Shown: positions 25,082 through 30,658 of the stretch, piece by piece
How positions within the stretch are numbered: the stretch's first letter is position 1
How the letters are laid out: every line of letters starts with the position of its first letter
Assembly: GCA_038874135.1 (NCBI GenBank)
Contig: JAVZCZ010000001.1
Coordinates: 192,001-256,000, forward strand
Length of the DNA: 64,000 bases
Source of the DNA: Candidatus Woesearchaeota archaeon
GTDB taxonomy: Archaea > Nanobdellota > Nanobdellia > Woesearchaeales > 0-14-0-80-44-23
Direction: 5' to 3'
Notes under the pieces: model-generated
Seen by the model: the letters and a program-made list of their open reading frames with translations, nothing else
The model's database searches: none
Told to the model about the DNA's origin: nothing
Program-made: the position numbers and the translations under genes

Positions 25082-25243
25082 AAATTCTCACCTCATTATT
25101 TTGAGATTTTTGGATTATTCTGCTCCTAAACCCCCTAAAAAATATAAAAATTGTATACAAGCAGGTATATATAAAGGTTTCGGAAATATGTTCTGTTAAA
25201 TTGTTGTAGGTAATTAATCGGCTACTTGAAAGAACTCTAAAGC

Positions 25244-26053
25244 CTAAAGCAGATTAGCAATTTTCTTTATATCCTTATTTGCTATATAAGTGTAAATTTG
25301 CGTTGTTTTCAAATCTTTATGGCCTAATAGCTGTTGAATATATCGAATATCAGCACCAGATTCCAATAAATGAGTGGCAAAATTGTGCCTTAAGGTATGG
25401 GGAGTAACTCTTTTCTTTATGCCTGCTTTCTTTGAAGCAGATTTGACAATCTGTTGGATTGTCCGTTTATTGTATTTTCCTTCTCTTTGGGAAACAAAAA
25501 TTGGACCTTCCTCCTTTATTCCATACATTTACAGCATATCACTCAATTTTTTATGAAGGAATACAACTCTTTCTTTATCTCCTTTAGCAGTTTTTAGGTG
25601 GATAACTTCTCTGTCAAAATCAATATCTTGCCAATTGAGGTTTCCAGCTTCGTCTAGCCAAAGACCAGCGTAATAAAGAAACATGATAACAAGTTTGTGT
25701 TTCAAATTATTTGTCGAATCTATCATTTTGATAACTTCTTCTTTACTTAAAACTAATGGTAATTTCAGAGATTTTCTGGCGAGAGGTAGCTTCTCCTCAA
25801 ATTTAGTGTTCAAAACATTTTCATAAAAAAAATTTTAGGGTAAAGTATGCGGACCTCATTGTCGATTTGCTTTTAGTGATATAAGACAATAAAAACTCCC
25901 TGGGCATTTTACCTGAAGACAGAAAATCTTTCACTATGGAAATATAGCACTTGCCTGTTTGACAGGAATACCTTATGAGCTTTAATTCCTCAATTAACTT
26001 GCCATTAGTTTATATTTTTCTTCTAGAGAGTAGATTTTACCTTCCTCATTCAT
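25244..26053 (-). pseudogene. Tyrosine recombinase (XerD/phage-integrase-like, SAM-like N-terminus), disrupted
   Basis: Reconstructed MNEEGK..KLIEELKLIRYS..LPLVLSKEEV..YYAGL(W)[48 protein letters not shown]; frameshifts near 26003 and 25825, stop at 25529-25531, catalytic Arg replaced by Trp. Confidence 0.9.
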
Positions 26054-26303
26054 AAATTTTATTATGATGACTAACTACATAAAATCTCGCTTTTTATCTA
26101 AATTTTTACAATAAAACGAATATTTATATCGCTTAATAGTTGTTCAACACAATTTGAGAACCTGCTTATTGCCACCCCGCCCAGACGGAAGCGCGCTTGT
26201 CCTTCGGACACATATTGTCTCGCTTTCAGCAGAAAGATTAATAGAAACGATGAGGGTCTTTTTTCGAATACTTTATAAATATGTTAAAGTTATACTTAAT
26301 ATT

Positions 26304-27056
26304 ATGGACGCTAAAGATATTGAAACAGTTGAAAAAAGGTATTTCGATGAGATAGCCTTTTTTATAGACAAAAATATCCAATGGGTTCTTGAAAGATTGA
26401 AGTCAAAAAATGAAATTAAAGAAGATTGGTTACAAACATTTAAAAAAACTTGTAGAGAAGCATACGAGGAATCATCAGAATTAGATGTAGGGGCAGAGAG
26501 AGTAATTCATAATTTATTTGGTCAATATAGACTTTTTGCTGTTAATTCTTCTCCTATCGGTTCAGATTTAATGTTTGAAACTCATGACGCTTTCATTCAT
26601 ATTGAAGTAAAAACTACTACTGATTCAAATCCGGCCGACTTCAAAGGAAAAATACAAATTGCACAAAGCCAAACTACTTACGAGGTTAGTCAAACAAAAA
26701 GAGGAAATCCTTATCCTTTTATTCCAAGTTTGCCAAAAATTTACTCAAATAAAAAAATCTGTCTAACTTATGTAATTCAAATCATACACAAAAATCAAGA
26801 AGATTTACCAAAAATAATAGTATTGTTTTCTATCCCTAATGGGCTATTAAAATCTACTTATGGGAATTGCATTAATTCTGGAAAACACACAAAAGAGTTA
26901 AATCGTTTGGGTTCGAGAGGGGATATAAGATTTTTGTATAAAGATGCAAGTAAATTTGAAAATCTAGAAAATAAACCGAGTAGAATAAAAGTTATCTATC
27001 CTCAAAACCCCTCAAAAGAATTACTTAAGAAGTATTTGGGCTTAGAAGAGTTATAA
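26304..27056 (+). CDS. Type II restriction endonuclease, BglI/SfiI-like PD-(D/E)xK
   Basis: SDLMF..IHIEVKT catalytic motif; FIPSLPKIY, SIPNGLL..SGKH..DIRF resemble BglI/SfiI as recalled; convergent with MTase. Confidence 0.75.
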   Translation: MDAKDIETVEKRYFDEIAFFIDKNIQWVLERLKSKNEIKEDWLQTFKKTCREAYEESSELDVGAERVIHNLFGQYRLFAVNSSPIGSDLMFETHDAFIHIEVKTTTDSNPADFKGKIQIAQSQTTYEVSQTKRGNPYPFIPSLPKIYSNKKICLTYVIQIIHKNQEDLPKIIVLFSIPNGLLKSTYGNCINSGKHTKELNRLGSRGDIRFLYKDASKFENLENKPSRIKVIYPQNPSKELLKKYLGLEEL

Positions 27057-28295
27057 AACTTTAATTATTCCGCATCTTTTTTCAATAATTTTTAGATAAT
27101 CTTTTTGTAACTCTATTCCAATAGATTTTCTATTAAGTTCTTTTGCTACTTTTAAAGTCGTTCCGCTTCCTACAAAAGGGTCTAAAACAACCCCTTCTTT
27201 TGGACAGCAAGCCATTATAGCCCTTCTTGGTAATTCTTCAGGGAATATTGCAAAATGAGAATCCTGCAATTTCCCTGTCGGGAAATCCCAAACATCGCCA
27301 GGGTTTTTTCCTAATTCATGAGGCTTAACAGTTTGTAAAACATAATGTTCTTCCGTCATAATTTTATCATATTTGTCTTCTTTAATACCCAAAATTTCTT
27401 TTAGTTTAAACCAATCTTCTGGTTTAGGCAAACATCTACCCCCCCTATCAATTCTAAACCAGTGTCCAGCAGTATCTTTATAACCAAATATTTTATCGAT
27501 TTCTTTAGTAGAAATTCCTTTTCTCTTTCTGTATTCTCTGATGAATTTTATTATTTCAAGCTCTAAATTACTATCTATTTTATTTTTTCTTTGGCGAGAA
27601 TAAAACTCTCCAAATACAGACAATCTTGCACCAGGAGACGCCCCAAGATTTATTTTATTCGTGTTCTTAAATTTACCATTATAACCCTTGCCATTATTAT
27701 TTTTATTTTTCCATTTCTCATATTCTTCAATAGATAATGTTAATGGCAATTGTGTTGTAGTTACATTAATAGTACCACCATTAGTTTTGTGCGGTATCCT
27801 AACAGAATCTAAATCAAAATAATATTCTGGTGTCAAATAACCATCTGGTTTTTTTACAAATAAAAATATAGGTTCATAAACATTAGAGAATCTATCCTTT
27901 ATTGATGATGGCATAGCGTTTGTTTTGCGCCATATTAAAACATTTCTTATAGCCCACCCTCTTTTTTGCATTTCTATCGCTAATCTAAATGGTATCATTT
28001 GTAAATTTTTTCCAACATATTTATCTCCTATATTCAAAAAATAAGCTCCATCATCAGTTAAAACTCTTTTTAATTCATCAGCAACTTCCAACATTTTATT
28101 GATATATTCTTCTGGTGTTTTTTCATTACCTATTTGTCCATCTATTCCATAATCCCTTTGTCTCCAATATGGCGGTGAAGTTACAATAACATTAACTGAT
28201 TTATCAGGAATATCCTTTAACCTACTTATAACATCACCTACTAAAATAAGTGGTGTAGTATCTTTCGGCAGTGTTATCAAATTACTTTTGTCCAT
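27051..28295 (-). CDS. Beta-class amino DNA methyltransferase (probably N4-cytosine) with inserted HTH-like segment
   Basis: Motif IV VTSPPYW precedes motif I VLDPFVGSGTT; HFAIFPEEL. Confidence 0.92.
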   Translation of the reverse strand: MDKSNLITLPKDTTPLILVGDVISRLKDIPDKSVNVIVTSPPYWRQRDYGIDGQIGNEKTPEEYINKMLEVADELKRVLTDDGAYFLNIGDKYVGKNLQMIPFRLAIEMQKRGWAIRNVLIWRKTNAMPSSIKDRFSNVYEPIFLFVKKPDGYLTPEYYFDLDSVRIPHKTNGGTINVTTTQLPLTLSIEEYEKWKNKNNNGKGYNGKFKNTNKINLGASPGARLSVFGEFYSRQRKNKIDSNLELEIIKFIREYRKRKGISTKEIDKIFGYKDTAGHWFRIDRGGRCLPKPEDWFKLKEILGIKEDKYDKIMTEEHYVLQTVKPHELGKNPGDVWDFPTGKLQDSHFAIFPEELPRRAIMACCPKEGVVLDPFVGSGTTLKVAKELNRKSIGIELQKDYLKIIEKRCGIIKVL

Positions 28296-28437
28296 AATTA
28301 ATCCCTTTTTTATTGAACTCTTCTTTAATAAAATTTTCAAATTGTTTAGACACAATAAGCCCCTTTTCTTTACAAAACTTTCTGTATTCTTCATAAACTT
28401 TAGAATCGATCTTTAATGTAACATTCTTACTTGGCAT
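28282..28437 (-). CDS. Small ribbon-helix-helix regulator upstream of MTase
   Basis: MPSKNVTLKIDSKVYEEYRKFCKEKGLIVSKQFENFIKEE; AGGAG RBS; overlaps MTase start. Confidence 0.75.
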   Translation of the reverse strand: MPSKNVTLKIDSKVYEEYRKFCKEKGLIVSKQFENFIKEEFNKKGINYGQK

Positions 28438-28633
28438 TTTTTCAACTCCTTGTAATAGACATATTTGCACATATTTATAAATGTTTCTTAACTATACAGG
28501 TTTTTAATGAAACGGCGGCACTCCCTAAAGAAAAAACTATGGTGGCAAAAAATTTTCGGCGCCCTCGCGACTTTGAGTTTTTGGACTTTGCCCAACGTTG
28601 CACCAAAACTCAATCTTCATTTCATCCGGAGAA

Positions 28634-28729
28634 ATGAACAGCGATTTAACGGTTCCGCCTTCGCTCTGCCGCTCGGTCCCACCCCAATTTTTCCTTCCGA
28701 AAAACTGCGTATAAGCACACATGTTAAGT
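28634..28729 (+). other. Degenerate attC-like recombination site (putative)
   Basis: AAC AGCGATTTAACGGTT ... AACTGCGTATAAGCACACAT GTTAAGT: imperfect inverted arms ending in exact GTTRRRY; left core (AATGAAC) deviates from RYYYAAC. Confidence 0.4.
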
Positions 28730-28829
28730 CCAATAATTTTTTGAGCTCGGGCAGTGCTTCGCACATATAATCTGCTTCGTAGAAGTTTTATATTTTGGCG
28801 GTGCAAAAAGAAAGCTTAAAAATATCCTT

Positions 28830-29206
28830 AAAAACCAGATAAAATAATGACTGATGGTTTATGGGCTTATGAGAAGGCTTTCAAGAAAGCATTTTACAGC
28901 AGGTACAAAGTTGATAAAGTAGAATTGATAAGATGAGTTGGAATAAGAACAAGAGAAACAAACAATGTTATTGAAAAGACTTCATGGAACCCTTAAGGAC
29001 AGACTAAAACCCATGAGAGGATTAAAAGTGAGGAAACAGCACAAACATTTCTTGATGGTTGGTTTGTCTTCTATCACTTCTTAAGACCACATCAAAGTCT
29101 TAGTGGTAATACTCCCGCTAAAATCTCTGGAGTAAATATTGAAGTTGAAAATTGGAAATTTATGATACAGAAGGCAACTAAATTCCAAACTATTAATTCT
29201 GAATAA
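28830..29206 (+). pseudogene. C-terminal remnant of IS6-like DDE transposase
   Basis: KPDKIMTDGLWAYEKAF..TNNVIE/RLHGTLKDRLKPMRGLK/SEETAQTFLDGWFVFYHFLRPHQSLSGNTPA; stop at 28934-28936 and two frameshifts. Confidence 0.85.
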
Positions 29207-29305
29207 ATAAAGGTGATAAAAAAATGAAGATCTTAATGTTTAATTCATCAACAATAAGTTAACAGAACTCTGTTATGTGAGAAGAAGAGTAAATAAAGAA
29301 AAAAA

Positions 29306-29674
29306 TTATTTTTCAAACATCCTCTTTCCGAGCCCTTTTAGGTAGCACTTTATGAGTTCGTAGTGCTGTACGAGGTGTACTATGCCTAAGCCTGCTGCGA
29401 TGTAGCTAGAAATTGCGTGCGCGTCTCTTATCCACTGGCTTGCGAAGTATGCTGCGTTTCTTCCCCCCTGGTAACCAACGTGCGGGTAGAATATTCCGGT
29501 GCCGACTGCCACTCCTAAGGAGATGAGTAAGCTGAGGTCTACCAACATTTTTGAGTCCATAGGAGTCCATTTGCTGTGTGTTTCCCTCTCTAGTCTTCCT
29601 TCTAAATCATTTTGCATTGTTTTGCATACTTCTTCGCAGCCATCTTCTCTTACTTCTTTATTCTTCTTTGCCAT
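29306..29674 (-). CDS. DUF4405-like membrane protein
   Basis: TGIFY..GYQGGRN..WIRDAH..IVHLVQHY with conserved histidines. Confidence 0.7.
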   Translation of the reverse strand: MAKKNKEVREDGCEEVCKTMQNDLEGRLERETHSKWTPMDSKMLVDLSLLISLGVAVGTGIFYPHVGYQGGRNAAYFASQWIRDAHAISSYIAAGLGIVHLVQHYELIKCYLKGLGKRMFEK

Positions 29675-29960
29675 AATGTTCACCTGCTTTTTTTCTTATA
29701 CCATATTCCTGCACTTGGCTTTTTGTGCCGTGCTCTTCCCTGTTTAAGCGTTCTTCTTTCAGTTTGAGTTCAAGACCGCCTAGTTGGTGCGTAAATTCGT
29801 ATTTTCCCCGTCTTGTTTCTTCAATTCTTACCCTTGCGTATTCTACGCAGTGCCCCTGGTAGGTTTTTTCTGTGTGGTAATTGTTGTAAGCGATTGTTCC
29901 TCCGGCAATGAGTCCCGCTGTTAGGATTCCTGCTATTGCATATTTCATTTTTGCGTTCAT
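29658..29960 (-). CDS. Hypothetical protein with N-terminal signal/TM segment
   Basis: GGTGA RBS; hydrophobic N-terminus. Confidence 0.55.
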   Translation of the reverse strand: MNAKMKYAIAGILTAGLIAGGTIAYNNYHTEKTYQGHCVEYARVRIEETRRGKYEFTHQLGGLELKLKEERLNREEHGTKSQVQEYGIRKKAGEHYGKEE

Positions 29961-29998
29961 TTTTTCACCTGTCAGTTCTTATTTTATTTGCTGAGATA

Positions 29999-30040
29999 AG
30001 TTTCATATTATTGAAACTATACTTATAAGTTTTTGAAACT
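29999..30040. promoter_or_regulatory. Inverted-repeat operator candidate in divergent promoter region
   Basis: AGTTTCA-tattat-TGAAACT plus a further TGAAACT half-site at 30034-30040. Confidence 0.45.
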
Positions 30041-30091
30041 GTGGCTCCATTGTAAGAAAGTTTAAATAATTTGATTAATCAGTATTTTAAA

Positions 30092-30658
30092 ATGAAGGAT
30101 AATTTTAAAACTAGGGCCGTTGTCGCAGTTGCTGTTTTAGTTGCTTTCGCAATGTTTGTCCTATTTCTGTTGATGTATTATGATTTTCAGCACCAGCTGA
30201 ACAGCAGGCGCTTGACCCTTGATGAGTTGGAGAATATGAGTGCTGATGAGATTAAGCAGGCGATTATTGCTAATCGGCAGAATGAGAATCTTTTGCACGG
30301 CTATTATCTGATTCCTTTCACTGCGTTTATAGGGCTTCTTGTTGGCGCTGTTGTTTATTACCTTATGTCAGAAAGGATTTCCAAGCAAGAAAGAATTGTT
30401 GAGAGGGATGCGCGTATAATTCTTAAATTTTTGAACAGTAATCAGCGAAGAGTAGTTGAAACATTGCTTGAGAGCGGCGGCAGTGTTAGGCAGTATGAGC
30501 TTTCTCACCTTCCGGGGCTTAATAAGGTTAGGACGCACAGAATCGTTAGAGAGCTGGCTGAAAAGGGAATCATCTCAGTTGAAAGGCTGGGTAAGATTAA
30601 CAGGATAACACTGAATAAGGAACTTTTTGAGATTCTTAAGGAAAAGAAGGATGTATAA
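30092..30658 (+). CDS. Membrane-anchored wHTH transcriptional regulator
   Basis: Two TM segments followed by QRRVVETL..QYELSHLPGLNKVRTHRIVRELAEKGII.VERLGKINRI. Confidence 0.8.
   Translation: MKDNFKTRAVVAVAVLVAFAMFVLFLLMYYDFQHQLNSRRLTLDELENMSADEIKQAIIANRQNENLLHGYYLIPFTAFIGLLVGAVVYYLMSERISKQERIVERDARIILKFLNSNQRRVVETLLESGGSVRQYELSHLPGLNKVRTHRIVRELAEKGIISVERLGKINRITLNKELFEILKEKKDV

Follow-up and report, generated by a model that had tools for sequence, protein, structure and literature searches.

A decayed, probably integron-like gene-capture platform with a compact Xer-like recombinase inside a transposon shell of a woesearchaeal genome

We analysed a 64,000-nt stretch of DNA from a Candidatus Woesearchaeota archaeon (assembly GCA_038874135.1, contig JAVZCZ010000001.1, positions 192,001 to 256,000; hereafter the window), which is part of a closed genome of 909,956 bp that is 99.4% complete (G000; the window corresponds to G000:C1:192001-256000). 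Positions 25190-29268 of the window probably represent a decayed integron-like gene-capture platform inside a transposon shell, in which a broken gene for a compact Xer-like tyrosine recombinase points away from a restriction-modification (R-M) cassette, with a conserved attI-like site between the two and an attC-like imperfect palindrome at the far end of the cassette. What we observed in the window and its relatives is the anatomy of this platform, the orientation and position bias of its repeat units, the covariation within them, the comparative breakpoints at the gene-proximal site and the absence of the IntI-specific domain from the recombinase.

An earlier note on this DNA, made from the letters alone, had proposed a cassette-capture system with a divergent, non-IntI recombinase at this place. 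The geometry, the sites and the non-IntI character of the enzyme held up, while recombination itself is a step that we infer from sequence. The note also recognized the platform as such and missed the terminal inverted repeats and the transposase remnant that enclose it. The features of the element, in window positions, are as follows.

25190-25207: left terminal inverted repeat, GTTCTGTTAAATTGTTGT, complementary to 29251-29268 at 16 of 18 positions
25244-26052, minus strand: pseudogene of a compact Xer-like tyrosine recombinase (~265 aa when intact), from a PF00589 match and alignment to an intact homolog
26083-26146, plus strand: attI-like region, with TCGCTT direct repeats at 26086-26092 and 26129-26134 and the core TAATAGTTG followed by TT at 26135-26144, conserved in 43 recombinase loci
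26145-26303, plus strand: 5' leader of the cassette, GC-rich, with a UNCG-type hairpin and a T-run at its end, similar to G014:C78
26304-27056, plus strand: candidate type II restriction endonuclease (PADLOC REase_II, E 1.4e-10)
27051-28394, minus strand: N4/N6 DNA methyltransferase (PF01555, E 6e-55; PADLOC MTase_II, E 4e-77)
28282-28437, minus strand: small ribbon-helix-helix (RHH)-like protein of 51 aa, first in the methyltransferase operon, candidate controller (only a weak DUF6364 match in Pfam)
28513-28627, plus strand: 5' extension of the repeat unit; it has hairpins of its own and falls within the nhmmer family model
28628-28734, plus strand: attC-like site, with GAACA at 28636-28640, arm L'' GCGATTTAACG, inner hairpins, a decayed arm L' and TGTTA at 28722-28726 (covariance model R1, 60.8 bits, E 1.4e-8)
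28726-28831, plus strand: start of a further cassette, truncated by the transposase remnant, similar to G038:C32 and G021:C23
28832-29206, plus strand: C-terminal remnant of a DDE transposase, frameshifted and without its N-terminal half, in three open reading frame (ORF) pieces (weak rve_3 match, E 3.5e-4)
29251-29268: right terminal inverted repeat, ...ACAATAAGTTAACAGAAC; this end recurs at G000:858171 and in locus L073, and similarity stops exactly there

Repeat units form oriented arrays upstream of the recombinase gene

The GC-rich non-coding stretch that the earlier note had pointed out at the end of the R-M block proved to be one member (28513-28739) of a repeat family. Iterated nhmmer searches returned 73 copies from the loci searched. 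In a sample of 150 genomes of the order, a covariance model built on the 3' half of the unit (R1) hit 64, some of them with up to 11 copies and with tight same-strand arrays.

Intact homologs of the recombinase are widespread among DPANN lineages; homologs, 56-93% identical, were assembled into a set of 80 recombinase loci drawn from 119 confirmed stretches. Their hosts are woese-, pace-, aenigm-, micr-, iain- and altiarchaeal metagenome-assembled genomes (MAGs) and a few Thermoplasmatota; the closest pairs of recombinase genes among the loci are 90-91% identical at most, and numerous contigs stop 70-350 bp upstream of the gene. We found 59 units upstream of the gene (167.6 kb searched) versus 1 downstream (525.8 kb searched), and all 60 were on the strand opposite to it. 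Among the 48 loci whose upstream sequence exceeds 400 bp, 34 have at least one unit. The motif at 28634-28729 recurs, in one orientation and on the 5' side of the recombinase gene, at the boundaries of variable genes, which is what the proposal of a cassette system had implied. Across the 150 genomes of the order, the recombinase family (E ≤1e-60) was found in 31, and 19 of those 31 also had units; in at least 10 of these 19 genomes one contig carries both, with a unit on the 5' side of the recombinase gene and on the other strand.

Arrays are frequent and comprise up to five units (L074, L129), and six same-strand units lie within 4 kb in G069:C2. In L074 each unit follows one gene or gene pair and the next ORF begins 55-80 nt past the unit. 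The median cassette spacing is 827 bp. The genes delimited in this way differ from locus to locus: just 6 cross-locus pairs among 233 upstream ORFs were similar, and the hunt for shared cassettes from which to map junctions came back nearly empty. The cargo of L074 and L129 includes a histidine phosphatase, HIT, DUF6884 and HAD proteins, a MazF toxin and several proteins without a family match, and other loci carry R-M, GmrSD-HNH, EVE and LemA genes.

At the recombinase end of the arrays lies a site that is conserved in its turn. Forty-three loci anchored on CTTAATAGTTGTT share a region of ~70 nt that contains TCGCTT twice as well as the core TAATAG(T/G)TGTTA, which in the window reads ...TAATAGTTGTT next to the recombinase gene (26135-26144). 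Conservation among the anchored loci collapses after GTTA, save for an AAT a few bases on; the conserved site ends in TAATAGTTGTTA. In at least 25 loci, the recombinase module is homologous to the window at the nucleotide level only as far as 26144-26157. Both junctions picked out in the earlier note, TAGTTGTTCAACAC at 26137-26150 and GTTAAGT at 28723-28729, are present at those positions and correspond to conserved GTT-containing cores, the former in the 43 loci and the latter at the ends of units.

Two comparisons place breakpoints at this core. Loci L121 and L126, from related genomes, are syntenic and 85-92% identical on the 3' side of the recombinase and 90% identical in the recombinase gene itself. 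On the 5' side, similarity breaks off ~119 nt before the start codon, immediately past ...TAATAGGTGTT (GGTGTT), and over the 4-6 kb beyond the breakpoint the two loci have only repeat units in common. Upstream of the homologs, cargo is variable, as had been expected of a cassette platform, and in this pair it is unrelated past the attI-like site. In the window itself, the ~90 nt that start at GTTCAAC (26142; aligned segment 26141-26230) match the sequence after a unit in G014:C78 at 88% identity; to the left of the GTT lies the recombinase-proximal site in the window and a unit arm in G014. Such a switch at GTT is the pattern that would be expected if cassettes exchange between both kinds of site.

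We also considered whether the conserved 70-nt region is a mere strong promoter, given partial matches near housekeeping genes. This reading is insufficient, as the 43 copies stop sharply after GTT; the region may nevertheless have a promoter role alongside its attI-like role. As a separate observation, L034 (1206-1591, G273:C3) holds the full attI-like region, with both TCGCTT repeats and the core, without a recombinase gene; a unit stands directly before it and an RHH/PIN pair after it.

The platform lies between the ends of a transposon

In L054, L057, L075, L063, L129 and L020, the 3' flank of the recombinase gene closes with ...ACAATAAGTTAACAGAAC (~18 nt), where similarity halts, and in at least seven loci the gene lies ~36 nt from one terminal repeat. 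L073, from an Iainarchaeum MAG, has the full analogous layout (repeat, truncated transposase, RHH and EVE-domain cargo, recombinase gene, repeat), and its equally truncated transposase copy is 87.5% identical to 28981-29268. No close intact cognate of the transposase was found in 300 genomes, the relatives there being 28-46% identical at best. A sister element elsewhere in the genome (G000:C1:844838-858172) has the same ends (GGTTCTGTTAAC.../...GTTAACAGAACC) and an exact 8-bp duplication at its borders (AAAGTGAA). Its cargo consists of a type II R-M system and small RHH gene, followed by a unit (846858-847110), and of a type I R-M system with a partial unit (856851-856924); a recombinase gene is absent.

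In four loci, a zinc-finger transposase gene of the IS6 type (PF13610) is convergent with the recombinase gene and touches its 3' end (L055 3543-4433, L061 8791-9660, L062 6324-7344, L048 2357-2764). This junction differs from the inverted-repeat junction of the window, and the L055-type transposase has no match in the G000 genome.

The transposon borders bear on the alternative that survives best, although we consider it unlikely, namely that the recombinase is the cointegrate resolvase of a DDE transposon, the region upstream of its gene a res site, and the units repetitive extragenic palindromic (REP)-like or miniature inverted-repeat transposable element (MITE)-like palindromes, or else terminators, accumulated in the cargo of transposons. 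A precedent is the TnpI/IRS system of Tn4430 (Tn3 family), in which a replicative DDE transposon encodes a small tyrosine recombinase with a repeat-bearing site directly upstream; the platform likewise has a conserved region with direct repeats upstream of its recombinase gene. The position of the platform between terminal inverted repeats and next to a transposase remnant, the short distance from recombinase gene to repeat in at least seven loci, the convergent IS6-type genes in L055, L061, L062 and L048, and the occurrence of units in a sister element without a recombinase gene all agree with a resolvase. It would leave unexplained, however, why the units lie on one strand and on the 5' side of the gene, by 59 to 1, and delimit single unrelated genes, why units and gene-proximal site have a TGTTA core in common, and why syntenic relatives differ from that core outward. 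The platform differs from Tn4430 in that it has no Tn3-type transposase, and TnpI systems are not known to have oriented arrays of palindromes that delimit cargo. The two roles, resolvase and cassette recombinase, could coexist.

For a gene-capture platform in a transposon shell, a parallel exists in the class 1 integron of Tn402/Tn5053-type transposons, where the recombinase gene is also by one terminal repeat, the cassettes are in the middle and the DDE transposase is toward the other end. The transposase family and the repeats are unrelated to those found here, however, where the transposase is present only as a remnant, and the 8-bp duplication of the sister element compares with a target duplication of 5 bp for Tn402. 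Elements of the IS6/IS26 type are characterized by short repeats, a DDE_Tnp_IS240 transposase and an 8-bp duplication; inverted repeats are present here too, but the 8-bp duplication occurs in the sister element only and the remnant yields a weak rve_3 match.

The recombinase is a dead Xer-like paralog without the IntI-specific domain

The ORF pieces 25244-25528 and 25529-25813 are two halves of one gene (PF00589, E 9e-26 and 4e-11). We assessed its damage by comparison with the gene at L020 4134-4952, an intact homolog of 272 aa that belongs to a genome of the same family (80% nucleotide identity). Relative to this reference, the window gene has an in-frame TAA at 25526-25528, two frameshifts (+1 in a T/A run near 25825 and a 1-nt deletion near the N-terminus) and a replacement of the first catalytic Arg by Trp (YYAGLRLDE to YYAGLWLDE), in agreement with the earlier description of the integrase as broken.

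The nearest solved structures are archaeal XerA (5HXY, E 3e-40) and VchIntIA (2A3V, E 2.5e-38). Against the latter, the recombinase aligned in two pieces with 17 residues opposite 62 of IntI, and thus the IntI-specific domain around patch III, ~45 residues, is missing. The integron-integrase model TIGR02249 also matched it in two pieces, at 197 bits; homologs scored 177-197 bits on this model for a cut-off of 265, and 196-216 bits (best 216.4) on the archaeal XerA model NF040815, below its cut-off of 220. The absence of the IntI insertion, which had been read from the compactness of the protein, is confirmed by the alignment to VchIntIA and by the shortfall of even 197 bits against 265.

Both Xer-type genes of the genome skip positions ~180-235 of the TIGR02249 model, and no IntI-type gene above the TIGR02249 cut-off is present in the genome. 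The second of these genes, at 182179-183018, is the only other tyrosine recombinase of the genome; it is intact, 43% identical to the L020 homolog, and starts 25 nt from a dif-like palindrome, CGTATAA-GGTATA-TTATACG (G000:C1:182154-183018 region). Since the intact Xer beside the dif-like site is the other gene, the broken gene is a dedicated accessory paralog, distinct from the housekeeping Xer. Although only a relic, the window copy is of value because its genome is closed: the dead array recombinase can be distinguished there from the intact housekeeping Xer, and the transposon borders are visible. We further observed that the window arm ACTGCGTATAA (28704-28714) agrees with the left arm of the dif-like site, AGTGCGTATAA, at 10 of 11 positions.

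The archaeal XerA/dif system (PDB 5HXY, 4A8E) offers the closest solved relative of the enzyme, with the same compact architecture, and the arms of the units resemble Xer arm sequences; the difference is that the recombinase of the window is a separate, dead paralog and that its candidate sites are arrays of hairpins and not a single dif. A plain Xer-type enzyme acting on a hairpin site without an IntI domain is known from CTX phage, whose folded single-stranded attP is recombined by XerCD, although this reaction integrates a phage genome at dif and involves neither a cassette array nor an attI-like platform.

The lack of an IntI gene also bears on a second alternative, to which we give somewhat less credence than to a resolvase: the units would be ordinary attC sites of CALINs, that is, attC clusters without an integrase gene, served by a classical IntI from elsewhere, and the Xer-like gene would be a bystander. 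Ghaly et al. 2022 (PMC9668308) described archaeal integrons from 75 MAGs, Nanoarchaeota among them, with 539 attC sites and only six IntI genes, all with the IntI domain; most of the arrays are CALINs. This explanation would suit our units in so far as they have AAC/GTT triplets and arms that pair as in attC. It sits poorly with a complete genome that has no IntI-type gene above the cut-off, and with a Xer-like gene that is adjacent to the arrays and oriented with them in dozens of loci; the array contig prefixes checked (e.g. PEVX01, DUFN01, DUFK01, JACP) were also absent from the supplementary text of PMC9668308, which is possibly incomplete. A full-text literature search found no paper on a Xer-type recombinase with cassette arrays in archaea, only papers on IntI-type archaeal integrons.

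Covariation supports an attC-like fold of the repeat unit

The anatomy of the unit was derived from an unguided MAFFT alignment (A1) of 31 copies. From its 5' side, the attC-like part consists of a (nearly) invariant TAAC-A, an 11-nt arm, a variable hairpin, CCCAAAT, a small hairpin, AAACTTC, an 11-nt arm complementary to the first, 1-3 unpaired bases and T-GTTA. The TAACA and TGTTA at the two ends, both (nearly) invariant, are reverse complements of each other, and the arms vary from copy to copy yet remain complementary (GGCATTAACAG/CTGTTAATGCC, GGGATATACG/CGTATATCCC, CGGCTTATGCG/CGCATAAGCCG). The 3' end of the unit, ...CTCTTAATCGC-ATA-TGTTA....CAAT, has the same shape as the recombinase-proximal site. 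The 5' half is conserved in sequence (CACGTTGCAC box) and includes a hairpin with compensatory changes (GAGTTTT/AAAACTC, GATTTTT/AAAAATC, GAATTTT/AAAATTT). Judging from the alignment, the 3' half has the predicted architecture of an integron attC, with R''/R' bearing AAC/GTT, L''/L' arms and a variable terminal structure, and the canonical RYYYAAC/GTTRRRY fits only part of the copies.

Over the 16 stem pairs, 92.7% of cells were paired, compared to 74% in shuffled alignments and 32-42% when the partner was slid, and 83 cells were altered on both sides, compared to 24.6 in shuffles. On four measures (paired cells, cells altered on both sides, further pair types and covariation score), none of 500 shuffles came up to the real alignment; on a fifth, the count of pairs altered on both sides (10 in the real alignment), 25 of the 500 did. 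Compensatory changes occurred in 9 of 11 arm pairs, and RNAalifold independently recovered the arm stem and the small hairpin, with 16 of its 20 predicted pairs compensatory. Wobble pairs were nearly absent (5 G-U among 496 cells) and double changes outnumbered single ones by 83 to 4, a pattern in keeping with a constraint that acts on both strands of the DNA and not on an RNA.

The window copy retains 11 of the 16 stem pairs, joint worst among the 31. Folding of 28500-28830 as a single sequence gave z-scores of -0.11 and +0.14 on the two strands, no better than shuffled sequence, so that the structural signal comes from the family. Searches of Rfam returned only tRNAs at the gathering threshold across the whole window and nothing credible at E ≤10 over 25800-29400, and within the genome the unit is not multi-copy, with one full and one partial copy elsewhere. 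It is very improbable that the units are RNA elements of the cargo genes (terminators, structures of 3' untranslated regions or small RNAs), for although their strong structure, their place at gene 3' ends and the T-runs and promoter-like TATA boxes nearby would suit such elements, the near-pure Watson-Crick pairing, the lack of an Rfam match, the shuffled-like folding of the window copy and the link to one side and one strand of the recombinase gene would not.

The platform resembles integrons, then, in a recombinase gene divergent from an array of short, unrelated cassettes, an insertion-type site by that gene, a cassette-end imperfect palindrome with an AAC...GTT base and variable complementary arms, and a cargo of defence and toxin-antitoxin genes. 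It differs from them in a recombinase that lacks the IntI-specific domain and scores below the integron-integrase cut-off, and in units, characterized here from sequence, that are more conserved, have a 5' extension of ~100 nt and fit RYYYAAC/GTTRRRY in part.

A model for cassette capture and the evidence that weighs on it

In intact relatives, a compact Xer-like gene lies beside an attI-like site (two TCGCTT repeats and the core TAATAGTTG followed by TTA), with the cassette array extending away from it. Each cassette is closed by an imperfect palindrome of attC-like build, from TAAC-A through an 11-nt arm that varies between copies, inner hairpins and the complementary arm to T-GTTA. Strand exchange by the recombinase would take place at the GTT, or beside it, in both the attI-like and the attC-like sites; the cassettes of integrons enter attI between G and TT. 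The attC-like site would most likely act as a folded or extruded hairpin, as attC does in integrons, with cassettes entering at the attI-like site and leaving by excision between units. The window platform is frozen, because its recombinase is a pseudogene and its attC-like stem, with 11 of 16 pairs left, has decayed; the earlier note, on the strength of the gene alone, had called it frozen too.

Several points weigh against reading 25190-29268 as such a platform. The window element has no target-site duplication (GGAAATAT versus TCTGTTAT). The ORFs of the arrays are co-oriented in 54 cases versus 32 by crude ORF calls, a small bias. Units were found in 45 of the 119 genomes of the order in which the recombinase family was not found, most genomes being fragmented MAGs; set against the 19 of 31 recombinase-positive genomes, this makes the genome-level link modest. 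The conserved ~100-nt 5' extension of the unit, as far as its sequence tells, has no counterpart in integron attC sites. Finally, that this enzyme recombines these sites, the exact position of the crossover and the folded-strand mechanism are matters that we infer.

A broader proposition, on which we consider the balance to be about even, is that DPANN archaea carry a second, IntI-independent lineage of integrons, in which a compact Xer-like recombinase without the IntI domain captures and shuffles cassettes at folded attC-like sites and some platforms, enclosed in transposon shells, carry defence cassettes from one archaeal phylum to another. The IntI-specific domain, which reads extrahelical bases in the folded attC, is regarded as necessary for integron recombination. 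If the proposition is true, either this domain is dispensable or integron-like capture evolved twice. An IntI-free lineage would also account for the near-total lack of IntI genes in the archaeal attC arrays published so far, would supply a candidate enzyme for these integrase-less arrays, and would provide a route for the exchange of defence genes among tiny symbiotic archaea. Intact homologs are available, and together with their sites they are short enough for standard two-plasmid recombination assays.

Cassette cargo and genomic setting

The window holds one 2.6-kb cassette (~26145-28725), with the endonuclease, the methyltransferase and the small RHH-like gene, followed by the stump of a second. 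The REase_II and PF01555/MTase_II matches uphold the earlier assignment of this cargo as an R-M block, and all three cassettes of the 0.91-Mb genome are R-M systems. The endonuclease candidate (26304-27056) had no Pfam match and no PDB match. The true start of the methyltransferase is probably the ATG at 28295. Within the stump, 28754-28791 is 87-91% identical to G021:C23 and to G038:C32, in the latter ~290 bp upstream of an intact recombinase gene.

The RHH-like protein is 56% identical to the product of the first gene of a GmrSD-HNH operon in L100 (789-944), and a paralog heads the second R-M system of the genome (G000:846661-846819). This family of ~51-aa proteins (the window, G000:846661-846819, L100 789-944 and L098 6373-6537) leads unrelated defence operons, two of them type II R-M and one GmrSD-HNH, and each gene is directed away from the nearby unit. 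The cassette leader, for its part, resembles an independent small transcription unit at 26151-26266, with a TATA box at 26123-26129 and an end in a T-run ahead of the endonuclease gene's own TATA box; its UUCG hairpin is a UACG hairpin in G014.

Thermosome, aIF6-type and intron-bearing tRNA genes identify the DNA as archaeal. The G+C content is ~30% across 25100-29300 and ~43% around it. In a genome of the same genus (G001), the thermosome gene and its promoter are homologous to the window up to 25180, and homology resumes with the tRNA-Val gene from 30677; between these shared flanks G001 carries unrelated genes, and the platform therefore sits in a variable island. From the right inverted repeat to the tRNA-Val gene (29306-30658), the window has three genes (DUF4405, one without an assigned function, and a DUF7343 helix-turn-helix protein), none of which occurs in G001, where the equivalent interval holds a membrane protein and a radical SAM gene.

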